Source of the DNA: Escherichia coli
GTDB lineage: Bacteria; Pseudomonadota; Gammaproteobacteria; Enterobacterales; Enterobacteriaceae
Strand: one strand, 5' to 3'
NCBI RefSeq assembly: GCF_003790525.1
Contig: NZ_CP033635.1
Length of the DNA: 64,000 bases
The notes under the pieces are model-generated. The model saw only the letters and a program-made list of their open reading frames with translations. It was not told where the DNA came from and made no database searches. Position numbers and translations under genes: made by a program. How positions within the stretch are numbered: the first letter of the stretch is position 1; the number at the start of each line of letters is the position of its first letter. Below, piece by piece: positions 1,304 through 16,369 of the stretch.

Positions 1304-2044
1304 TCAGAGGTTGCCGGTGTAGTGCCAGCGTAAATAACGCAGCAAACGAAGCTGACGCTTAATGCGGCTCGGCTGCGAAAGCAGGCGGTAGAGCCACTCC
1401 AGCCCCAGCGTTTGCCAGATTTTCGGTGCGCGTTTTACGTGACCGGTGAAAACATCGTAAGTCCCGCCAACGCCCATATACAGCGCATCCGGATGCACCA
1501 GACGGCAGTCGCGCATGAAGATCTCCTGCTTTGGCGATCCCATCGCAACGGTGACGATTTGCGCTCCGCTGGCATGAATGCGTTCAAACAGCGCCTGACG
1601 CTGCTCGGGTTTAAAATAACCATCCTGACTGCCAACGATATTCACATTCCACTGGTTGCGCAGTTTAGCTTCAGTTTGCGCCAGCACTTCAGGTTTACCG
1701 CCCACAAGAAATACCGGCGTCCCTTCTTTGCCTGCGCGCGCCATCAGCTCTTCCCAGAGATCGGCCCCGGCAACGCGGGAAACCTGCGCCTGCGGGTACT
1801 TTTTACGTACTGAACGTACAACGCTGATGCCATCCGCATATTTAAATTCGGCAGCGTTAATTAACTCCCTGACCTCAGCATTATCTTCAATGGTCAGCAT
1901 TTTTTCAGCATTAATGGCAACCAGCGTTCCCTGCTTAAGCTGCCCGTCAGCGAACAGATAATCGAGGGCGTGCTGCATATCACGCCAACCGATCAACTGT
2001 AAGCCACGCAGCGTATAGGTCGGTGCCGTGGTGTTGTTATTCAT
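1304..2044 (-). CDS. wecG: UDP-N-acetyl-D-mannosaminuronic acid transferase (ECA biosynthesis)
   Basis: 246 aa ORF; last gene of the ECA cluster by position; length and sequence match recalled WecG/RffM. Confidence 0.9.
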
Positions 2045-2046
2045 TG

Positions 2047-3399
2047 TTATCCTTCAACCTGCGTCCGGAGCGATGATTTTGTTCGTTTATGAATGAGTCC
2101 GGCGCTTTCAAAAAGCCAGTACAACAGTTTTGCGATCATCAGACATGCGCCGAAGACCACGATAAAAAAGACCACGCGTGAGACAAACGAATCCAGCCCT
2201 TCACGCGCCAGCACGATCATATTGAAGATCGCCCCGAAGCAGAAACTGTGCAATATCGCAGCCTTATAGCGATTAGTCTCGCGGTTGCCCAGCTCATACA
2301 GCCAGTCGAACCATTTGATGATCAGTCCAACAACAATCGCCCCGAGCGGGATGAACAACGCGCCGCCCATCACCACCAGTGAGCCTATAAGCGTAGGCGA
2401 GATCGCCAGTCCGGAGTGGTTATTCAGCACTTCCCAGGTAAAGTAGTTGGCGGAGTTCAGTACCATACTCGGGCGACCCGGCCACAGCCAGGAAGGGATA
2501 AAGACATAGAAATCGCGGACAATGGGAGCCAGGCCCTGGAAGTCGATGTTGTCGTAGTTCTGCAGCAGCAATGCCAGATTCTCCCACGGCGAAAAGGTAT
2601 CGCGGGTGAGATAGAGAAACGTATAGAACGCTTCATCACCGCTCACATTCATTCCATAGCGTTTTAGCGCCAGCCAGAACATGCCCACAATCCCCAGCAC
2701 GCCCGCCGCCGCCAGCATCCACAACGAAATCCAGCCGCGAATAATGCCAATAAACAGGAAGATAGCGAATGCGATGATGATATTGGCGCGAGTGCCGCCG
2801 ACAATCATATAAGTCAGCAAGCCAAAAGCGACCGTGCTGACGAGGAAAAACAGCCACGCTTTGCTGTCCTGGCGCAGAAAGTAGACCACCAGCATCGCCG
2901 GGATGAAAAAGTAAAAGAAGCGTTTTAATGCCACGCCGGAGACTTCGCTGGAAAAGATCTGACTGTAAGAATTAAGCCGGAACAGCAAAAAGCCGTTGTG
3001 CATGAAGAAGATGCCGACGCTCACCAGCGCGATGCCCATCAGGATCACCCACGTGAGATTGGTCTCCACGCGGTTCATGGTAAACAGCGGACGGCGCGGT
3101 GCATCAGCAACGCGTTTGCGTAGACGGGTTTTGTAGGTGACATAGTAAACCGCGTAGAAGCAGCCTGCAGAAAGCAACGCCTGCAACAAGATTTCTGGCG
3201 GCGCGACACCAACATCAAAGCGAAATACCAGCACGCTGGTCAGCGGAAAGCCGAAGAAAAAGGTGAGCAAAAACAGCAATGAAAAGAAGACATTGAAGTT
3301 AAAGCGCACACGGCGAAACTCAAACCAGGTCAGCGTGGCAATAAACAGCGTGCAGAGCAGCCAGACAACAAAAAGGCCACTGAATTGCAGCAGACTCAT
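2047..3399 (-). CDS. wzyE: ECA polysaccharide polymerase, polytopic membrane protein
   Basis: 450 aa highly hydrophobic ORF; position in wec cluster. Confidence 0.9.
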
Positions 3400-4475
3400 G
3401 CGACCTCCCCGGTGGCAATCGCCAACGCCCGCTGCCAGCCTTGTAGATAGTTAGGGCTAAAGAAGGCAATGGTGTTTTTATCCACCGACGCCAGCTGGCG
3501 CTGCGCTTCACGCACAATATCCTCGTTGAGATCGTCGGTAGTAAACAGCACCGGCAAATGTTGTTCCGTCATATCCTGCCAGAACGGATTTTCCCGGTTA
3601 AGCACACAAGGAATGCCCGCCTGAATCAGTAAGCACAGCGTACCAATGCCCTGCTGGCGGGCAAAAATAAAGTAACCAAGATCGCACTGACGAAGTAGCG
3701 TCAGATAGGCGTCAAATTCCAGTTTTTCGCTCAGAACTTGCAGATTTTCTTCGCTGAATAACTCCAGCCCCGCCTGACGAACTTCCTCGATGTACGCTTC
3801 GTTATTAGGCGGATATCCCATCGGCACCACCACTTTTACCGTATCGCCAAATTGCTGATGAACGGCGCGCAAGGCAGCAATATGCTCATTGCTGCGGTCG
3901 CCGGAGTTGCCCACCAGAATGGTCATTTTTCCTTCACGTTGCCGATCGTTCGCCATCGTATTGAGAGAAGGATCCATCCGCGTCGGGAAGTACAGCAGTT
4001 CGCCCCGCACCTTTGGGTGCGTTTTGGCAAAAAAGCTCAAATCACCGCGGGTGGCAAATACACAGCCGACTCGCTTTTGCGCCAGGCGACGTAGTGGGTA
4101 AAAAAGCTTATATCTCAAGCCACTGGAAAGCTCGTACAGGTCTGCCCCCCAGATATGCCAGTAAAACTGGCTGGGCTTAATACCACCACTCAGCAGAGCC
4201 AGCCACAGTGTGGGATTGAACTGACCGTGGAAAAAAAAACGCTGCTGACGGTTAGCTTTTGCTTTCGCGATGACCGCTTCCGCCAGCGATTTTTTCCCAG
4301 GGAAAAATTGCACAGAAAGCGTCGGACAGCTATCACTTAAACCGTCGTCCTTGCCAACAACCATAAACTCGCGCGCGTGCTCGCTCGTCGCGGCCAGCGC
4401 GTCATTGAAAAACCGCAAAACGGTTCGGTTATGGTGAGGGATATCCGATCCCAGTACGTGAATCAGTACAGTCAT
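3396..4475 (-). CDS. wecF: TDP-Fuc4NAc:lipid II Fuc4NAc transferase
   Basis: 359 aa ORF; 4-nt overlaps with both neighbours; cluster position. Confidence 0.9.
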
Positions 4476-5722
4476 GCCCGCCTACGCCAGAGTAAAAACA
4501 CGCCACAACAAAGAGAAAAATAGACGATATAGGTTGCCATATAGGCCTGCGCCGCGCCCAGTGCACCATGCGCAGGGATTAGCCAGTGGGAAAATACCAT
4601 CAATAAAGTGAACTGGCTGACTTCCGCCAGAATATAAAACCGCAGTGACGCTTTGGCGATCACCAGATAACCAAAGACATAAGCGCCCACTTTTAACACA
4701 TCACCTACCAACTGCCAGGCAAAGAGATCGCGCATAGCGGTAAATTTATTCGACAACAGCAGCCAGATAGCAAAATCACGCAGCAACCAGACGGAAAAAC
4801 TCGCCGCCGCCACTGCCGGTAAGACGAATTTCAGCGATTTAACCACTTCCCGGGTGATATCGCGCTTTTCCGTTAGCCGCGACAACGTGGGCAGCAAATA
4901 TACGCTGAACGATGCCGTAATAAATTGCAGGTAGGCATCGGAAATACTGCTCACCCCTTGCCAGATCCCCACTTCATCCCAGCTATACTGCGCCGCCAGC
5001 AGTTTACGCATCATGATGTAAGCAACAGGCAAGGTTACCGACGTAATCAACGCCATGAGCGTAAATTTGCTCAACTGCCCTGCCAGGCCGTTATCCCAGC
5101 TGGGTTTCAGATAGCTTAACGGGATTGCACCACGCTTAATTAGCATGATGACGGCAGGAATCACCACCAGCGCGGGAATCAACGCCAGCCCCAGCAACGC
5201 CCCTTCATAACCGCCCAAACGGTAACTGACGTAGTACGCAAGAACGCCAATCAGGCTGCCGACAATCAGGGATAACGCATTACCTGCGGCATCGCGAAAG
5301 CCTTTCATCAACGCCAGTAACAGGTTGCCCCAGGCGATCCCCATTTGCACCAACGCCACTAAACGCACCAGCCCCTGATAGTCGGTATTACCGAACAATC
5401 CCTGGCTGATTGGCGCAGCTGCCAGCACAAAAACCAGCGCCATTAGCATAGAGAAGCCAAGTACCATCGCTGATGAAGTGCCGACCACGCGGCGCAATTG
5501 TTGGGGATTATCATGGTACTGGGCAACGTATTTGGTTACGCCGTTAAAGATGCCTGCCCCGGCAAGCACGCCGAGCACGGTAATCAACTGGCGGAAATTT
5601 GCCGCCAGCCCAAGCCCCGCCGGACCAAATGACACTGCCAGCAACTTACCGACCAGTAACCCGGCACCAATCTTGACCAGTGTACTGGCCGCCGTCCACA
5701 AGGACGCTTTTGCCAACGACAT
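4472..5722 (-). CDS. wzxE: ECA lipid III flippase (Wzx family)
   Basis: 416 aa multi-TM ORF; cluster position. Confidence 0.9.
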
Positions 5723-5723
5723 A

Positions 5724-6854
5724 TCAGGAGAAGTAGTTCAACAAGGTCGCAATTACCGTACGCTGATTGACGGGCGACAGGTTGTAGAACAACGGCAGGC
5801 GCAGCAGGCGCTCGCTCTCTTTGGTGGTGTAGCGATCTTCACCGTGGAACTCACCAAAGCGCTCCCCCGCAGGGCAACCGTGCAGCGGAATGTAATGGAA
5901 CACCGCCATGATTTCCGCTTCTTTCAGAAAGTTAATCAACGCGCTCCGGTCATCAATATCCCGCAGTTTAATGTAGAACATATGCGCGTTCTGCACGCAG
6001 CCATCGGGAATCGACGGCAGCTCGATACGCCCGGCTTTCGCCAGAGGCGCTAACGCATCGTAGTAGTTTTGCCACAGCGCCAGACGCTGCTGATTGATAC
6101 GTTCAGCGGCTTCCAGTTGCGCCCAAAGGTACGCTGCTTGCAGATCGGACATCAAATAGCTGGAGCCAATATCGCGCCAGGTATATTTATCGACCTGACC
6201 ACGGAAGAACTGGCTGCGGTTTGTGCCTTTTTCACGGATGATCTCGGCTCGTTCGATCAACGCTTTATCGTTAATCAGCGTCGCGCCGCCTTCACCGCCC
6301 GCCGTGTAGTTTTTGGTTTCATGGAAGCTAAAGCAGCCAATATGACCAATGGTTCCCAGTGCACGCCCTTTGTAAGTGGACATCACGCCCTGAGCGGCAT
6401 CTTCCACCACAAATAGATTATGCTTCTTCGCCAACGCCATAATAGTGTCCATTTCGCAGGCCACACCCGCGTAATGAACCGGCACGATAACGCGCGTTTT
6501 GTCGGTGATCGCCGCTTCAATCAGCGTTTCGTCGATGTTCATGGTGTCCGGGCGAACATCCACAAAAACGATTTTTGCGCCACGCAGCACAAAGGCATTG
6601 GCGGTGGAGACAAAGGTGTAGCTCGGCATGATCACTTCATCGCCAGGCTGGATATCGAGCAGCAGCGCCGCCATCTCCAGCGAAGCGGTGCAGGATGGCG
6701 TCAGTAACACTTTGGCGCTGCCAAAACGTTGCTCCAGCCACTGCTGGCAGCGACGGGTAAAACCACCATCGCCGCACAGTTTGCCGCTACCCATTGCCGA
6801 CTGCATATAGTCGAGTTCGGTTCCCACCACCGGCGGTGCGTTAAATGGAATCAT
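5724..6854 (-). CDS. wecE: dTDP-4-amino-4,6-dideoxygalactose transaminase (DegT/aminotransferase fold)
   Basis: 376 aa ORF; cluster position and recalled WecE/RffA sequence. Confidence 0.9.
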   Translation of the reverse strand: MIPFNAPPVVGTELDYMQSAMGSGKLCGDGGFTRRCQQWLEQRFGSAKVLLTPSCTASLEMAALLLDIQPGDEVIMPSYTFVSTANAFVLRGAKIVFVDVRPDTMNIDETLIEAAITDKTRVIVPVHYAGVACEMDTIMALAKKHNLFVVEDAAQGVMSTYKGRALGTIGHIGCFSFHETKNYTAGGEGGATLINDKALIERAEIIREKGTNRSQFFRGQVDKYTWRDIGSSYLMSDLQAAYLWAQLEAAERINQQRLALWQNYYDALAPLAKAGRIELPSIPDGCVQNAHMFYIKLRDIDDRSALINFLKEAEIMAVFHYIPLHGCPAGERFGEFHGEDRYTTKESERLLRLPLFYNLSPVNQRTVIATLLNYFS

Positions 6855-6858
6855 GTGA

Positions 6859-7533
6859 TCACCTGTATAACCAGTACGTGGTGCTTTCTACATTCGCACC
6901 ACTTTGTATGTATCGTTTAAGCGCGGCGGTGTTGCCCATCTGGGTCGCCACCCGCAAAGTTGTTTTACCGCGAGCATACGCCCAGTTTAGCGCCGTTTGC
7001 ATTAGCTCAGCACCTGCACCGCGTCCAGCCAGCAGGCCAATTCGCGCATCTGTCGCATTGAGTTCCCGTAAAGAGACATAACCGCGAATATCGCCGGACG
7101 CCGCACGTAAAATCAGACATTGATGATCAAAGGTGCCGCGCACGGCATTTTCAATCCACTGTGCATAAAAGCGACCGCTGGCGTCAGGCGCATACCACGG
7201 CGCACGAAAACGGCTTTGCGCAAATGCGGCGCTGGCTAACTGACGTAATGCGGGAATATCGGTCTCTTGTGCCACTACTGCACCGCTATCACTGACATTG
7301 TTCACGGGTAGTGCCAAATCAACTTCACCTTCTACCAGGGAGAATCCCAGCTGTTGCAGGGCATCCAGTTCACCCGTATTTGATGCCGCAATTTTGGCCT
7401 GCACCCGTGACCACGGCGCTAACGCGTCTGGCGTCAGGAGCGGTGCTTCAGACGTAATGCGCACGATGGCGCTGTTAACACCAAAGAAGGCGTTTTCCCA
7501 GGTTAGTGGCTCAATACTGGCGCGGACGGGCAC
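6859..7533 (-). CDS. wecD: dTDP-fucosamine acetyltransferase (GNAT)
   Basis: 224 aa ORF with GTG start that overlaps the 3' end of rffH by about 23 nt. Confidence 0.85.
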
Positions 7534-8392
7534 GAAGTAACTCCAGCAGATATTGGCCGTAGCCAGTTTTCGCTAATGAACTGGCAGCACGCTTCACACC
7601 CTCGTCATCGAGCCAGCCGTTACGCCAGGCAATCTCTTCCAGGCAGGCAATCTTAAAGCCCTGGCGTTTTTCCACCGTCTGTACAAAGGTGCTGGCTTCA
7701 ATCAGGCTGTCGTGAGTGCCAGTGTCCAGCCAGGCAAATCCGCGCCCAAGCAGTTCAACGGTCAGGTTGCCCGCCTCGAGGTACATCTGGTTGATGGAGG
7801 TAATCTCCAGCTCACCCCGCTCCGACGGCTTCACCTGCTTTGCGTACTCCACGACTTTACTGTCGTAGAAATAAAGCCCGGTCACCGCCCAGTTTGATTT
7901 CGGCTGTTTTGGTTTTTCTTCCAGCGAGATAGCGCGGAAATTGTCGTCAAACTCCACGACGCCAAAGCGTTCCGGGTCCATCACCTGATAGCCAAATACC
8001 GTCGCCCCTTCCGTGCGCGCCGCAACATGACGCAGCTTCGGACTGAAGCCCTGTCCGAAGAAAATGTTATCGCCCAGCACCAGACAAGAAGGTTCACCGT
8101 TGAGGAAAGTTTCACCGATGATAAAGGCCTGCGCCAGACCGTCCGGGCTGGGCTGTTCGGCATATTCCAGCTGGATACCGAACTCACTACCATCGCCCAG
8201 CAGGCGCTGGAAATAACCTTTATCTTCCGGCGTAGTGATGATGAGAATTTCGCGGATACCGGCCAACATCAGCACCGACAGCGGATAGTAAATCATTGGC
8301 TTATCGTAAATCGGCAACAGTTGCTTCGATACGCCGCGCGTAATCGGATGCAATCGGGTGCCGGAACCGCCCGCCAGGATAATACCTTTCAT
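7511..8392 (-). CDS. rffH: Glucose-1-phosphate thymidylyltransferase 2
   Basis: 293 aa ORF; N-terminal [14 protein letters not shown] nucleotidyltransferase motif. Confidence 0.93.
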
Positions 8393-8410
8393 GTTTGCCT
8401 CCGCTGAAAA

Positions 8411-9478
8411 TTAGCCTTTCAGACCTAAACGCTCGCCCTGATAGCTGCCGTCCTGCACCTGCTTCCACCAGCTTTCATTAGCCAGATACCACTGCACCGT
8501 TTTACGCATTCCACTTTCAAAGGTTTCCTGCGGCAGCCAGCCAAGTTCACGGGCAATTTTCGAAGCATCAATGGCATAACGCAGATCATGCCCCGGACGG
8601 TCAGCGACAAAGGTGATCAGGTCACGATAGTGCGCCACGCCGTGCGGCTTGTTCGGAGCCAGTTCTTCCAGCAGCTCGCAAATGGTTTCCACAACATCGA
8701 GATTCTTACGCTCGTTGTGACCACCAATATTATAGGTTTCACCGACTTTCCCGGTGGTCGCCACGCAATACAGCGCGCGGGCGTGATCTTCAACATACAG
8801 CCAGTCACGGATTTGCTGCCCGTTGCCATATACCGGCAGCGGTTTACCCGCCAGCGCGTTGAGGATCATCAGCGGGATCAGTTTTTCCGGAAAGTGGTAA
8901 GGGCCGTAGTTATTCGAGCAGTTGGTGATAAGCGTCGGCAGACCATAGGTCCGCAGCCAGGCGCGTACCAGATGGTCACTGCTGGCTTTTGAAGCGGAAT
9001 AAGGGCTGCTCGGCGCATACGGCGTGGTTTCGGTGAAGAAATCATCCGTCGAGTGCAGGTCACCATATACTTCGTCGGTGGAGATATGATGAAAACGGAA
9101 CGCTGATTTTTTATCTTCCGTCAGCGCATTCCAGTAAGTCCGCGCCGCTTCAAGCAATGTATAAGTCCCGACAATGTTGGTTTCAATAAACGCTGCCGGG
9201 CCGTCAATAGAACGGTCAACATGGCTTTCGGCTGCCAGATGCATGACACAGTCTGGCTGATGCTCAGTGAATACGCGCGCCAGTTCTGCCCGATCGCAGA
9301 TATCAACTTTCTCAAAGGCAAAGCGCTCGCTTTGCGCGACCGGTGCCAGCGACATCAGATTTCCGGCGTAGGTCAGCTTATCGACCACTACCACCGCGTC
9401 GCTCGTTTCGTTGATGATATAACGCACCAGCGCCGAGCCAATAAACCCGGCACCACCTGTTATCAGAATCTTTCTCAT
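8411..9478 (-). CDS. rffG: dTDP-glucose 4,6-dehydratase 2
   Basis: Track ORF trimmed to the [15 protein letters not shown] start (Rossmann GxxGxxG); 355 aa; start codon shares 1 nt with the wecC stop. Confidence 0.93.
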
Positions 9479-10740
9479 CAGCGCCAAACTCCTTTGGCAT
9501 CGACGACATACTGCTGATGGACATTGTCGCCATTGATAACTTTGAACTGACTATGATCGACCAGCATCACCAGCACGTCTGCCGTTGCCAGCGCCTCGTC
9601 AAGCTGCGCCAGAGTACAAAGCCCGGTCAGTTTTTTCGGCAACTGGTGGATGTTAGGCTCAACAACCAGCGTTTCGCCGCTATGCCACTGGGCGAGCAGT
9701 TCAGCGATTTCCATCGCCGGGCTTTCGCGCAGGTCATCAATATTCGGTTTAAACGCCAGACCAAAGCAGGCGATTTTCAGTTCACTGGCGCGTTTATCGG
9801 TAGCAGCAAGGCAGTCGGCAACCGCCGCTTTCACCTGATCGATAACCCAGAACGGTTTGTGATCGTTCACTTCGCGCGCGGTACGGATAAGCCGCGCCTG
9901 CTGCGGGTTCTGTGCCACGATAAACCACGGATCAACAGCAATGCAGTGACCGCCCACGCCAGGACCAGGCTGAAGAATATTAACGCGAGGGTGACGATTC
10001 GCCAGGCGAATCAGTTCCCAGACGTTAATTCCCTGATCGGCACAAATCAGCGACAGTTCGTTAGCAAAAGCGATATTCACATCGCGGAAGCTGTTTTCGG
10101 TGAGCTTACACATTTCCGCCGTCCGCGAGTTAGTGACGACACACTCACCTTCGAGGAAAATTTTGTACAGTTCGCTGGCGCGGGCCGAACAAACCGGCGT
10201 CATACCACCAATCACGCGATCGTTTTTAATCAGCTCGACCATAACCTGGCCCGGTAACACGCGTTCCGGACAGTAAGCAATGTTGACGTCCGCCAACTCG
10301 CCCACCTGCTGTGGGAAAGTGAGATCTGGACGCATCTCTGCTAACCATTCTGCCATCTTCTCGGTTGACCCCACCGGCGAGGTGGATTCAAGGATCACCA
10401 GCGCGCCTTTTTTCAGCACTGGCGCAATGGAGCGAGCAGCCGATTCAACGTAGGTCATATCTGGCTCATGATCGCCTTTAAACGGCGTGGGTACAGCAAT
10501 CAGCCAGGCATCCGCTTCAACTGGCGTCGTGCTCGCTCGTAAAAAACCGCCTTCTACGGCAGTTTTTACTACGCTCGCCAAATCAGGTTCGACGATATGG
10601 ATTTCGCCACGATTGATGGTATCAACCGCGTGTTGGTTGATATCGACACCAATCACCTGTTTTTGCCTTGAGGCAAACGCAGCTGCTGTAGGCAGCCCGA
10701 TGTAACCCAGTCCGATAACAGAAATGGTCGCAAAACTCAT
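9478..10740 (-). CDS. wecC: UDP-N-acetyl-D-mannosamine dehydrogenase
   Basis: 420 aa ORF; N-terminal [11 protein letters not shown]-binding motif. Confidence 0.93.
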
Positions 10741-11867
10741 AGTGATATCCGATTATTTTTTAACGCTTCCAGAATGCGAGAGCATGCCTGACCATCACCA
10801 TACGGGTTATGGGCGCGGCTCATAGCTTGATATTCGTTTTCGTCTTTTAAAAGACGCGTCACTTCCTCGACAATTCGCTGCTTATCCGTGCCGACCAGAC
10901 GCACCGTCCCCGCTGTCACCGCTTCCGGACGCTCAGTGGTATCGCGCATCACCAGCACCGGTTTCCCCAGCGAAGGCGCTTCTTCCTGAATGCCGCCTGA
11001 GTCGGTCAAAATCAGCCAGGCGTGGTTCATCAGCCAGACAAACGGTAAATACTCCTGGGGATCGATCAGAATGACATTTTTCACATGCCCCAGAATGCGA
11101 TTGACCGGCTCTCTGACGTTCGGGTTGAGATGCACCGGATAGACAATCTGGATGTCCTGGTGCGTGGTGGCGATGTCTGCCAGCGCCTGGCAGATTTCTT
11201 CAAAGCCACGACCGAAGCTCTCACGCCTGTGACCGGTCACCAGAATCATCTTTTTATCGGGGTCGATAAACGGGTAATTTGCCGCCAGTTCTGAACGCAG
11301 CGTGTCGCTGCTCATCACCTGGTCACGCACCCATAACAGTGCATCGATGACAGTATTACCGGTAATGAAGATTCGGCTGTCAGCAACGTTTTCACGCAGC
11401 AAGTTTTGCCGGGAAGTTTCGGTTGGAGAGAAGTGATACATCGCCAGATGCCCGGTCAATGTACGGTTAGCCTCTTCCGGCCACGGCGAATAGAGATCGC
11501 CCGTGCGCAGACCTGCCTCAACGTGACCAACTGGAATACGCTGATAAAACGCCGCCAGGCTGGTTGCCAGCGTCGTCGTAGTATCGCCGTGAACCAGCAC
11601 GACATCTGGTTTGAACTCGGCAAGAATTGGTTTTAGCCCTTCCAGAATCCGACAGGTTATCTCTGTCAGGCCCTGTCCTGGCTGCATTATGTTGAGATCG
11701 TAGTCAGGTACAATGGAAAAGAGTTTCAGCACCTGATCGAGCATCTCCCGATGCTGCGCAGTGACGCAAACTTTAGCCTCAAAAAAAGGATCTTTTGCCA
11801 ACGCATGCACCAACGGAGCCATCTTGATGGCTTCCGGGCGCGTACCAAATACAGTCAGTACTTTCAC
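10737..11867 (-). CDS. wecB: UDP-N-acetylglucosamine 2-epimerase
   Basis: Track ORF trimmed to the GTG codon giving (M)[18 protein letters not shown], 376 aa. Confidence 0.9.
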
Positions 11868-11922
11868 ATCGATTCTCTTCGAATAAGCGGCGAGCGCCTT
11901 TGCGCTCACCACAGCAGTGTTG

Positions 11923-12969
11923 CTATTTCGAGCAACGGCGGGTTAATGCGACACCAGCCCCGATCAGTCCCCCGACAATGCCCCACATAATCATCAGGAA
12001 GGCACGACGTGGGCTATCGCGTTTTACCGGTTCTTCCGGCGTACGCAAATAGCGATAGGTCTGAAAACGCGGATCCAGGGTTGGACCAACATTCAGGGTG
12101 TTTAACATGGCCCGATTCTGATCATAGTCGAGATCAAAGGCCGGACCGACGGCCTGTAAATTTTCCAGTCGAGCCTGGAGCATTGGACGCCCAAGCAGGA
12201 ACATTTCTGAATCAGGTAGTTCCTCGGCAGGCACATCTGTCGCACTGCGCGAAATATTATGCTGCTCAGCAATTTTCAGCGCCTGTTCAATACTGTTCAT
12301 CCGGCGATCGTAGATAGCTTTCGCCACCTCTTCCTGACGCTTCACCTGAGCTTTCATCTGGATGGTGCGTGCCGCCCATGCGCCTTTCAGCTCATCATTC
12401 AGATGGCTGGCTGCACGCTGGCTGGCAAAAGCAACATACTGACGTAACAGGTTATTAGCGTCAGGCGCAGTTTCGGCAATCAGCTTCACGCTGTCATTGA
12501 CCGCGCGGGTGAAGTCACCGGGAATAAACACGATGTTGTTGATCATTTCATCCAGCAACGCCGCATCGGCTTTGCTATTGCCCACCATCCGCTGTTTGTA
12601 ATAGTCGGTTTGCAGCCAGAACTCTCTGCGGGTATCCCACGAGGCCAGTTGCATAACAAACTCTTTATAGGCTTCGTCCATGACCGATGGTTGGTCGGCA
12701 GAAGCCATGTTTGAACGGACATCGAGGTTACGCAAAAATTGCTGCTGCGAGTAATATCCCCCCAGCATATTCACCGTTGGACGATCGGTAATCGCCGTTG
12801 CGCTCCACTCCTGTCGAGCAAAAAAAGTATACGCCAGCGCGATTAACGCAAACGCCAGCCCCATGCCAATAATCCACAGCTTCCCAGCCCACAAGGTACG
12901 AAACAACCCACGAATATCCAGTTCATTTTCAGCGTCTTCGGCCGGTTTCCCAGGCATTGGTTGTGTCAT
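11923..12969 (-). CDS. wzzE: ECA polysaccharide chain-length modulator (Wzz family)
   Basis: 348-349 aa ORF with N- and C-terminal TM segments; cluster position. Confidence 0.9.
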
Positions 12970-12980
12970 CACATCCTCAT

Positions 12981-14084
12981 TTATTTGGTTAAATTGGGGC
13001 TGCCACCACGATTTCTACGCAGTCTGCGTTTTACGCGCTTAATAAAGCGAGCAACTTTCCAGGCACGCTTGATGCAATATCCATAGAGGAAGAATGCTAG
13101 CAAAAAGAGCACCAGCATGACCCACTCCGGGACAAAATGAGAATATTCTGCCAGCACGCCAATGGAAGCGAGCAGTGCTGCGGCAAGGGTAATCAGCACA
13201 AACGCCTGGCGGGAAGTAAACCCGGCACGCATGATCAAATGGTGAATATGCTGACGGTCAGGAGAGAATGGGCTCATGCCTTTACGCAGGCGACGGTACA
13301 TAATCGCCACCATATCCATTAGTGGAATGGCGATTATCCATAATGCAGTAACCGGGCTTATTGGGTGCGTTTTTCCCTGAGTCGTTTCGAGCAGGATCCA
13401 GATAACGGTAAAACCAATCAGCGTACTGCCCGCATCCCCCATAAAGACTTTGTAGCGGCGACCCAGGATACCAAGGTTAAGCATGATGTATGGCAGGATA
13501 GCGGCGATCATCGCAAAGCACCAGATTGCGAGACTGGTTTGCCCGTCGAACCACAAAATCATACCGATTGCTGCAAACGAGACGCAGGACAACCCGCCCA
13601 GCAAGCCATCAATGCCATCAACCATGTTGAACGCATTAATGGCCGCCCAGACGGCAAATAGCGTCAGGAAGTAACCAAACGGTCCGAGCACCATCTCCCA
13701 GGAGCCAAAGATATAACCCAGGCTACTGAGATAAAGTTTGCCGAACACCATCATAACAATGCCAACAGCGGCCTGTATGGTGGCACGGATTTTTACGCTG
13801 ATATCAAAACGGTCATCCAGCGCGCCAATGAAAACAAGCACACCAGCACAAGCGAGATAGAGAGATGCATGCGGAATATAGTAATCGACAATTCCGAACG
13901 TGAAGCAAATCCCTGCGTAAACCGAAATCCCCCCAACGAGAGGTATCAATCCCTGGTGACGTTTGCGGAAGTTTGGTTTATCCACTAAACCGACTTTTTT
14001 TGCCACCTTACGGGCAAAAAACAGAAACAGTGTCGTGAATAAAAAAATACTGATGAGATCAGTACTCACTGTCAGTAAATTCAC
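12981..14084 (-). CDS. wecA: UDP-GlcNAc:undecaprenyl-phosphate GlcNAc-1-phosphate transferase
   Basis: 367 aa polytopic membrane ORF; first gene of the cluster, immediately downstream of rho. Confidence 0.92.
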   Translation of the reverse strand: MNLLTVSTDLISIFLFTTLFLFFARKVAKKVGLVDKPNFRKRHQGLIPLVGGISVYAGICFTFGIVDYYIPHASLYLACAGVLVFIGALDDRFDISVKIRATIQAAVGIVMMVFGKLYLSSLGYIFGSWEMVLGPFGYFLTLFAVWAAINAFNMVDGIDGLLGGLSCVSFAAIGMILWFDGQTSLAIWCFAMIAAILPYIMLNLGILGRRYKVFMGDAGSTLIGFTVIWILLETTQGKTHPISPVTALWIIAIPLMDMVAIMYRRLRKGMSPFSPDRQHIHHLIMRAGFTSRQAFVLITLAAALLASIGVLAEYSHFVPEWVMLVLFLLAFFLYGYCIKRAWKVARFIKRVKRRLRRNRGGSPNLTK

Positions 14085-15909: not shown

Positions 15910-16239
15910 TTACGCCAGGTTAGCGTCGAGGAACTCTTTCAACTGACCTTTAGACAGTGCGCCCACTTTGGTTGCCGCCACTTCACCGTTTTTGAACAGC
16001 AGCAGAGTCGGGATACCACGGATGCCATATTTCGGCGCAGTGCCAGGGTTTTGATCGATGTTCAGTTTTGCAACGGTCAGTTTGCCCTGATATTCGTCAG
16101 CGATTTCATCCAGAATCGGGGCGATCATTTTGCACGGACCGCACCACTCTGCCCAGAAATCAACGAGGATCGCCCCGTCCGCTTTGAGTACATCCGTGTC
16201 AAAACTGTCGTCAGTCAGGTGAATAATTTTATCGCTCAT
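15910..16239 (-). CDS. trxA: Thioredoxin 1
   Basis: Track ORF trimmed to [18 protein letters not shown]; WCGPC active site; 109 aa. Confidence 0.97.
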
Positions 16240-16369
16240 ATATAACTCCACAGGAATAAGCCTGGCGTGTTGGTTTCGTTGTTGGTGTAACATTAACCAA
16301 CTAAAGGTTGACTTTATTTCACCGGATACGCTTTCGTAAAGCAATAGTAAGCTGATATTCTACCACACT

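Follow-up and report, generated by a model that had tools for sequence, protein, structure and literature searches.

The GTG start codon of wecD lies within a conserved 23-nt overlap with rffH in the ECA cluster of Escherichia coli

We found that wecD (rffC) of the Escherichia coli ECA cluster very probably starts at a GTG codon (7533..7531, minus strand) inside the upstream gene rffH, 23 nt upstream of the end of the rffH stop codon, giving the 224-amino-acid acetyltransferase that has been crystallised. Comparison of loci indicates that the shared segment is an old dual-coding one, conserved in the Enterobacterales, and the same comparisons show selection on both the start codon and the Shine-Dalgarno sequence of wecD. 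The finding is correct but ordinary: the overlap and the junctions of the cluster are already known, being present in RefSeq, and the same distances have been published for K-12, where b3789 (rffH) and b3790 (rffC, i.e. wecD) lie at -23 and the neighbouring junctions are also -1, +18, +4, +1 and -4 (supplement of PMC10666635). The K-12 pair consists of the same genes with the same GTG start, and nothing of substance differs.

The window, that is, the whole stretch of 64,000 nt analysed, comes from E. coli strain SMS-3-5, which shares 95-99% identity with most other E. coli over a 3.1-kb region. The ECA (wec) cluster occupies 14084..1304 on the minus strand, as do all features described below, and the gene boundaries read in the window were identical to those of RefSeq NC_010498.1 (E. 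coli SMS-3-5). Specifically, rffG (8411..9478; ATG start, 355 amino acids) encodes dTDP-glucose 4,6-dehydratase (RefSeq; NF007582, 832 bits), and is separated from rffH by an 18-nt spacer (8393..8410) containing a GGAGG Shine-Dalgarno sequence with an anti-SD energy of -9.5 kcal/mol; the length of this spacer differs between species. The gene rffH (7511..8392; annotated rfbA in RefSeq) encodes a 293-amino-acid glucose-1-phosphate thymidylyltransferase, which scored 534 bits against TIGR01207 (cut-off 361) and is identical to PDB 1MC3 over residues 1-293; its homology to RmlA proteins stops at residue 287, so that the overlap falls in a non-homologous tail. The gene wecD (6859..7533; GTG start, TGA stop) encodes dTDP-4-amino-4,6-dideoxy-D-galactose (fucosamine) acetyltransferase (RefSeq; NF008212; PDB 2FS5/2FT0). 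Its stop codon (6861..6859) is followed by a 4-nt spacer and the ATG of wecE (6854..6852), the whole arrangement spanning 6852..6861; wecE directly followed wecD in all loci analysed (80 species loci, the window and further loci), and the +4 spacing was kept in 78 of 88.

The 23 nt shared by the two genes (7511..7533) encode both the RffH C-terminus, R-A-R-P-R-Q-Y-stop, and the WecD N-terminus, M-P-V-R-A-S-I-(E), with the wecD GTG (7531..7533) composed of bases 2-3 of rffH Arg287 (CGT) and base 1 of Ala288 (GCC). A start-type codon occupied this position in all 48 rffH-containing loci (GTG in 45 and ATG in 3), although these loci, like the other loci and sequences counted in this study, are not phylogenetically independent. 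Both the overlap length and the xTG were kept in 47 of the 48, from Escherichia to Providencia, among them two loci whose WecD was 43-46% identical. Among the 46 unique junction sequences from the 47 loci keeping the overlap, the T of the wecD start codon, an rffH-synonymous third position, was invariant (46/46), whereas the third positions of rffH codons elsewhere between -59 and -2 varied, except for the first G of the Shine-Dalgarno sequence described below and one near-invariant Lys codon at -35. In the Enterobacteriaceae, variation within the overlap was nearly all rffH-synonymous and altered WecD residues 2-6; within E. coli, the 66-nt rffH-wecD junction was at least 99% identical in 5319 genomes.

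A GGAG Shine-Dalgarno sequence (7541..7544) precedes the GTG by 7 nt and falls within the rffH codons for Leu283-Glu284 (CTG GAG). Its anti-SD duplex energy was -5.9 kcal/mol, compared with a background of -2.6 +/- 2.3, making it a moderate site, ranked among the best 9% of the cluster's NTG triplets. The first G of this motif, the rffH-synonymous third position of the Leu codon, was invariant (46/46), and in the unique junction sequences the Glu284 codon was GAG in 38 and never GAA; Klebsiella and Raoultella have a weaker GGAT. From these data, initiation at the wecD GTG would most likely proceed through the conserved GGAG. Ribosomes translating or terminating on rffH would prevent the site from folding and may make a local contribution.

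The earlier note had regarded the wecD start as uncertain and a shorter product from a downstream start as possible, a proposal that is contradicted by comparisons between loci and orthologues, by structure and by natural deletions. In such a model, annotation of the longest ORF would have created the 23-nt overlap artificially, and the real start would lie downstream of rffH, at codon 24 (7464) or codon 44 (7404), giving 201 or 181 amino acids; both codons are in-frame GTGs (7462..7464 and 7402..7404, respectively), that at codon 24 being the first canonical in-frame start after the wecD GTG, and none of the in-frame codons of the window from the end of rffH to the invariant Trp12 is a canonical start. 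In addition, the older TIGR02382 wecD_rffC profile begins at residue 44 (321 bits, cut-off 195), suggesting that shorter gene models were once in use, and the Pfam GNAT domain (PF13302 and PF00583, matching within residues 89-208) would be intact after truncation to codon 24. However, a start-type codon was found at codon 24 in only 42 of 88 loci and at codon 44, which is simply a conserved Val, in 54 of 88, and the anti-SD energies at these two codons (-2.8 and -2.2 kcal/mol) were at background. Moreover, NCBIfam NF008212 matched WecD residues 1-224 to profile positions 1-231 of 232 (356 bits, cut-off 219), and PDB 2FS5/2FT0, the construct of which begins at Pro2, aligned with residues 2-224, the window protein differing from the crystallised one by a single residue. 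WecD comprises a C-terminal GNAT domain and a family-specific N-terminal domain, in which the AlphaFold2 model (pLDDT 96.8) placed strand β1 at residues 4-9 and a helix at residues 11-17. Downstream starts would therefore delete β1 and α1 of a confidently modelled domain together with W12 and F17, both of which were invariant, and F16 nearly so, in 38 orthologues with identities down to 29%. Alignment of the N-termini of these orthologues, the check proposed along with the uncertainty, showed that almost all begin at the same column and supported no downstream start; in most of the distant hits, the alignment begins within the first few residues of the hit. The xTG and GGAG upstream are preserved by selection at rffH-synonymous sites, lineages without rffH retain the same N-terminus, and neither INRI-seq nor Ribo-RET lists an in-frame downstream initiation site. 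We thus consider a downstream start extremely unlikely, and the overlap with its non-ATG start a real, selected boundary, a result that is mostly quality control.

Two other candidate starts were rejected. One was the non-canonical ATT of codon 7 (7515..7513), which is fixed only through the TAT-TGA overlap with rffH and is GTT, CTT, TTA or CTG in lineages lacking rffH. The other was an upstream in-frame start, implied by annotations of 233-234 amino acids in some species; the window ORF has no in-frame start codon upstream of the GTG. For wecD, Table S3 of the published INRI-seq data has only a weak signal (6.6 CPM in 2 replicates), placed at a CTG at -13 that is out of frame and speaking neither for nor against the GTG, and wecD is absent from the supplements of TRAINSPOTTER, the Salmonella riboproteogenomics study and Giess 2017. 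Based on near-identity to the characterised E. coli protein, WecD would carry out the acetyl-CoA-dependent acetylation of dTDP-4-amino-4,6-dideoxygalactose.

Natural deletions of rffG-rffH provide a control for the dual-coding constraint. Both genes are missing from about 35 of the 80 species loci, yet the start of wecD stays at the codon used in the window or at one next to it, where it either overlaps the wecC stop (GTGA/TTGA) or follows a spacer. For example, in 117 E. coli genomes without rffG-rffH (an allele carried, for instance, by ST2747 or Ec-U4-19), wecC is followed by a 40-nt spacer with GAGGGAG and then by ATG-CCC-GTC-CGC; the WecD N-terminus is unchanged and the start codon is at the same position, but is ATG. 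Overall, wecD started with ATG in 3 of 48 loci with rffH as compared with 18 of 38 without (Fisher P = 1e-5, phylogeny ignored). The GTG start appears to be forced by dual coding inside RffH Arg287-Ala288 (CGT GCC), being almost always GTG because an ATG there would replace Arg287. The pair thus offers a clean example of dual coding fixing a GTG start, with natural deletions as control. It is conceivable, although we hold it to be more doubtful than probable, that the overlap is also a built-in governor of expression, combining a weak GTG with a moderate in-gene Shine-Dalgarno sequence and perhaps tying WecD output to ribosome traffic on rffH, from which the rffG-rffH-less lineages, including the 117 E. 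coli genomes, would have escaped through ATG and the strong GAGGGAG. If so, escape could shift WecD levels and the flux of dTDP-Fuc4NAc in ECA synthesis.

The cluster as a whole is packed more tightly than average, because 7 of its 11 junctions fall within -8..+6 nt, against a genome-wide share of 24% for E. coli same-strand pairs (PMC10666635), a difference with a binomial P of 0.006. These seven are wecB/wecC, wzxE/wecF and wecF/wzyE, each a 4-nt overlap of the ATGA type (-4), wecC/rffG (-1), wecE/wzxE (+1), wzyE/wecG (+2) and wecD/wecE (+4), and the others are wecA/wzzE (+11), rffG/rffH (+18), wzzE/wecB (+55) and rffH/wecD (-23, with 7533..7511 common to both genes). The ATGA-type overlaps, the single nucleotide shared by the wecC stop and the rffG start in TGATG (9480..9476), and the 23-nt overlap with its GTG start had all been described in the earlier note, and each is present in the sequence. 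Across loci, the wecC/rffG junction was -4 in 30 and -1 in 21. The "tight translational coupling" that the same note had read from spacing is plausible, and the -4, -1, +1, +2 and +4 junctions agree with published distance rules (PMC10666635, PMC12548453). The genes rffH and wecD are co-directional and overlap on the same strand, no promoter- or terminator-like site was found at their junction, and the cluster has been treated as one wec operon (PMC12212991); the output of WecD may be coupled to translation of RffH.

The junction of rffH and wecD, at -23 nt, is outside the -8..+6 range of efficient reinitiation. Because of this distance, the conserved Shine-Dalgarno sequence of its own and the lack of structure masking the ribosome-binding site, Shine-Dalgarno-directed initiation at wecD is at least as likely as reinitiation. 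In a stricter scheme, of the kind proposed for coat and lysis genes in phage fr, ribosomes would stop at the rffH UGA and go back 23 nt to the GTG, tying WecD strictly to RffH. The fixed overlap length is consistent with such obligatory termination-reinitiation, as are the -4 and -1 junctions in the rest of the cluster, which are typical of reinitiation, and the back-scanning over 34-38 nt reported in phage fr (PMC10666635, PMC12548453). However, dual-coding constraint alone explains the fixed length, the efficiency of reinitiation in native E. coli pairs drops steeply with distance, as measured at positive spacings (PMC10666635), and conservation of the Shine-Dalgarno sequence at a synonymous site suggests that ribosomes are recruited through it. 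Since wecD is also retained and annotated intact without rffH upstream, in the 117 E. coli genomes and in about 35 other species, obligatory reinitiation seems unlikely.

A model in which the ribosome-binding site of wecD is locked in a hairpin opened only by ribosomes translating rffH would fit the general RNA-unfolding model for coupled pairs (PMC12548453), and in its minimum-free-energy fold the E. coli junction has part of the region paired. The junction, however, folded no better than shuffled sequence (z = +0.76), the consensus fold of 47 junctions had an energy of -5.3 kcal/mol as compared with -4.8 +/- 2.4 for column shuffles (z = -0.22), and the segment from -13 to +3 was no more paired than the remainder of the 120 nt. 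There is thus no conserved RNA structure at the junction and none that masks the ribosome-binding site of wecD, making unfolding by rffH ribosomes very unlikely. Programmed +1 frameshifting where rffH ends (UAU UGA G) would yield an RffH-WecD fusion protein; the sole point in its favour is that wecD occupies the +1 frame with respect to rffH, with the frames meeting at the stop codon. The sequence has neither a slippery or prfB-like motif nor, 3 nt upstream of the rffH stop, a stimulatory Shine-Dalgarno sequence, the start codon and Shine-Dalgarno sequence of wecD are themselves under selection, and wecD is kept without rffH in many genomes, leaving frameshifting a negligible prospect beside initiation at the wecD GTG through its own GGAG.

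The rffH/wecD pair resembles the canonical termination-reinitiation pairs with NTGA (-4) or TGATG (-1) junctions (Huber et al. 2019, 2023; PMC12548453), a type to which four other junctions of the wec cluster belong, in that its two genes run in the same direction within one operon and the second starts inside the first. Unlike in those pairs, 23 nt separate its start from its stop, a distance beyond -8..+6, and it constrains seven codons of each protein, whereas in the canonical pairs the constraint falls on residue 2 of the downstream product alone. In phage fr or MS2, the overlap of the coat and lysis genes likewise extends over tens of nucleotides, with the downstream start before the stop of the upstream gene, and sets a precedent for terminated ribosomes gaining access to a start that lies upstream (Adhin and van Duin 1990, as described in PMC10666635 and PMC12548453). 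Initiation at the phage lysis gene depends on termination of coat translation, whereas rffH/wecD has a conserved Shine-Dalgarno sequence and wecD is kept in lineages without rffH.

No match to TGGC-N8-TGCW was found within the window wecD, for comparison with the σ54 site reported inside Salmonella wecD.

The arrangement has a consequence for genetic work on this cluster. Any deletion or insertion in rffH that removes its last 35-40 nt or so, containing both the GGAG (7544..7541) and the GTG (7533..7531), would also abolish wecD. Blocks late in the ECA pathway lead to accumulation of intermediates and envelope stress, and polar effects on wecD could therefore be mistaken for rffH phenotypes.

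Within the minus-strand enterobacterial common antigen (wec/rff) cluster, spanning wecA (14084) to wecG (1304), we read the junction lengths directly from the sequence and recomputed every boundary. Expressed as nucleotides of spacer (positive) or overlap (negative), the junctions were wecA/wzzE, +11; wzzE/wecB, +55; wecB/wecC, -4 (ATGA); wecC/rffG, -1 (TGATG, 9480..9476); rffG/rffH, +18; rffH/wecD, -23 (common segment 7533..7511); wecD/wecE, +4; wecE/wzxE, +1; wzxE/wecF, -4; wecF/wzyE, -4; and wzyE/wecG, +2. All of the overlaps and junctions listed in the earlier note were thus recovered, and the RefSeq boundaries were exactly those recomputed here. In their supplement, Huber et al. 2023 (PMC10666635) tabulate distances of -1, +18, -23, +4, +1 and -4 for K-12 b3787-b4481; since RefSeq and this table carry identical boundaries and distances, the observation is confirmed and was previously recorded. 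Spacings of -8 to +6 nt occur at seven of the 11 junctions, the genome-wide share among same-strand E. coli pairs being 24% (PMC10666635; binomial P = 0.006), and coupling along the cluster is a reasonable inference from the spacings of -4, -1, +1, +2 and +4. Across a 3.1-kb region, the window matches E. coli SMS-3-5 (NC_010498.1) at 100% identity and nearly every other complete E. coli genome at 95-99%.

The wecD gene (7533 to 6859, minus strand; 224 aa) starts at a GTG inside the end of rffH, whose stop lies at 7513..7511, and the sequence, RefSeq and comparative data all bear out this start and its 23-nt overlap. Scanning a single genome from each species yielded 80 Enterobacteriaceae loci, to which Providencia and several distant relatives were added by contig look-ups. 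The exact 23-nt overlap was present in 47 of the 48 loci in which rffH adjoins wecD, with aligned codon 1 being GTG in 45 and ATG in three. The sole exception was the Kluyvera genomosp. 3 locus (L038), with a diverged junction sequence and an rffH-like gene that stops 48 nt before a GTG-initiated wecD; here rffH may have been replaced by a different rmlA allele. Columns were counted over 46 unique junctions, which are not phylogenetically independent and are therefore given without a formal P value. From -59 to -2 relative to the GTG, rffH third positions varied freely (majority fractions 0.39-0.78), the exceptions being -35, within a Lys codon (0.98), and -11, where the G (46/46) is the first of the GGAG Shine-Dalgarno (SD) sequence; the RffH Glu284 codon was GAG in 38 junctions, GAT in seven, GAC in one and GAA in none. 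The T of the GTG, occupying the third position in the RffH Arg287 codon (CGT), was likewise invariant (46/46). Retention of the start codon and SD at RffH-silent sites is what selection for initiation at the GTG would be expected to leave, and the anti-SD energy there was -5.9 kcal/mol (background, -2.6 +/- 2.3).

The orthologue alignment of WecD N-termini also supports the GTG. In 38 orthologues, down to 29% identity, almost all sequences shared a common first column with the loose pattern M-x-[VIL]-[RH]-[AG], W12 and F17 were invariant and F16 nearly so; moreover, in a scan of 1.8 billion representative proteins, the first few residues of distant relatives mostly aligned with those of the query. 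WecD residues 1-224 match positions 1-231 of 232 in NCBIfam NF008212, the crystallised protein (PDB 2FS5/2FT0), a tagged construct, begins at Pro2 of the 224-aa form, and the AlphaFold2 model (mean pLDDT 96.8; 95 over residues 1-10) places strand β1 at residues 4-9 and a helix at 11-17. From the rffH stop to the Trp12 codon, the window offers no canonical start. The in-frame GTGs that follow, at codons 24 (7464) and 44 (7404), would remove conserved N-terminal elements, are start-type codons in only 42 and 54 of 88 loci, respectively (codon 44 being a conserved Val), and have background anti-SD energies (-2.8 and -2.2 kcal/mol). The GTG is thus well supported, and the shorter product from a downstream start that the earlier note had entertained is effectively excluded by the comparative evidence. 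The older TIGR02382 profile begins its match at residue 44, suggesting that shorter gene models were formerly used, which may explain why the boundary looked uncertain. The published initiation data searched gave no direct evidence for wecD from either N-termini or initiation peaks; INRI-seq Table S3 offers weak negative evidence against a shorter product.

Further support came from clusters lacking rffG-rffH. In 35 of the 80 Enterobacteriaceae loci (L005, L011, L016, L018, L031 and others), wecD directly follows wecC, in keeping with RffG/RffH being partly redundant with RmlB/RmlA (PMC12212991), and wecD starts at the same or an adjacent codon. In one type, wecD overlaps the wecC stop by 4 nt (GTGA or TTGA) and a wecC-embedded AAGG(A/C)G is re-used (14 loci, including some beyond the 80); in the other, wecD follows a spacer, which in several genera is an rffH 3'-end remnant (78 nt in several Raoultella, Klebsiella and Enterobacter loci). 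Within E. coli, 117 of 5426 complete genomes carry a cluster that lacks precisely rffG and rffH, with the breakpoint falling exactly at the wecD start codon: the wecC TGA is followed by an identical 40-nt spacer, tactgattaccgtgaatgactgttttgagggagtcacaca, containing GAGGGAG, and then by ATG-CCC-GTC-CGC-GCC-AGT-ATT-GAG, encoding the same MPVRASIE N-terminus. For example, positions 2459-2502 of homologous locus L089 (NZ_CM192135.1) correspond to 7533..9478 of the window. This allele independently establishes the WecD N-terminus and indicates that wecD does not need rffH upstream.

Without rffH, wecD starts were ATG in 18, GTG in 12 and TTG in eight; ATG was therefore used in 18 of 38 such loci versus 3 of 48 with rffH (Fisher P = 1e-5, uncorrected for phylogeny). 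At the overlap, an ATG is possible only if RffH Arg287 is replaced, as in Intestinirhabdus (Asp; GAT G...) and two distant loci (His; CAT G...). The first and second rffH codon positions (wecD third and first) are nearly invariant across the overlap, indicating that the RffH tail R-(A/V)-R-P-R-Q-Y is conserved at sites otherwise free in wecD. Of the rffH third codon positions, equivalent to second positions in wecD, +5, +8, +11 and +17 are variable, with changes to WecD residues 2 (P to L/R), 3 (V to A), 4 (R to H/L) and 6 (S to N), and +14 and +20 (Ala5 and Ile7) are fixed. The overlap constrains both frames, RffH more strongly. Because the alignment of RmlA homologues with RffH ends at residue 287, the overlap encodes a short non-homologous tail rather than the catalytic core. 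The wecD boundary and overlap are already annotated and catalogued; to this we add only the explanation of the GTG by dual coding and, as natural controls, the alleles with rffG-rffH deleted.

Dual coding alone is sufficient to account for the fixed 23-nt length, and the best-supported reading is that wecD would be initiated at the GTG under direction of its own SD within the rffH 3' end. Coupling through RNA unfolding at the junction found no support, as folding of the junction did not surpass that of shuffled sequence (z = +0.76), a consensus fold computed over 47 junctions could not be told apart from column shuffles (z = -0.22) and the wecD ribosome-binding site showed no preferential pairing. 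Termination-reinitiation, with ribosomes moving back over 23 nt, is possible, and phage fr provides a precedent at its coat-lysis overlap, although coupling in native E. coli pairs falls steeply with distance.

GTG starts are annotated for three of the 12 cluster genes, wecA (14084), wecB (11867) and wecD (7533). SD pairing is weak at wecA (-2.7 kcal/mol) and wecB (-2.9 kcal/mol), and wecB has a further in-frame GTG 15 codons upstream (11912); the wecB boundary may be more uncertain than the wecD one. The longest rffG ORF begins at a TTG (9485-9487, minus strand) within wecC, three codons 5' of the annotated ATG; in K-12, INRI-seq Table S3 lists an in-frame alternative initiation site at -9 of rffG (CTG there; 66 CPM, two replicates). 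The cluster's only long spacer, wzzE-wecB (11868-11922, minus strand; 55 nt), holds an 11-bp GC-rich hairpin, GUGGUGAGCGC-AAAG-GCGCUCGCCGC (fold energy z = -4.0 versus shuffles), which lacks a following U-run and may therefore act in mRNA stabilisation or processing instead of termination. A σ54 (RpoN) ChIP site, TGGCGCGGAAATTGCACA, has been reported inside Salmonella wecD (PMC3844500); there was no TGGC-N8-TGCW match inside wecD of the window (6859-7533), the nearest being at 6658-6673 in wecE. Elsewhere in the window, Rfam matches were Rev39_5p_UTR (31319-31608; 160 bits), the TrxA 5'UTR thermometer ahead of trxA (16210-16309) and a complete rRNA operon that includes StyR-44 and three tRNAs (34829-40045).
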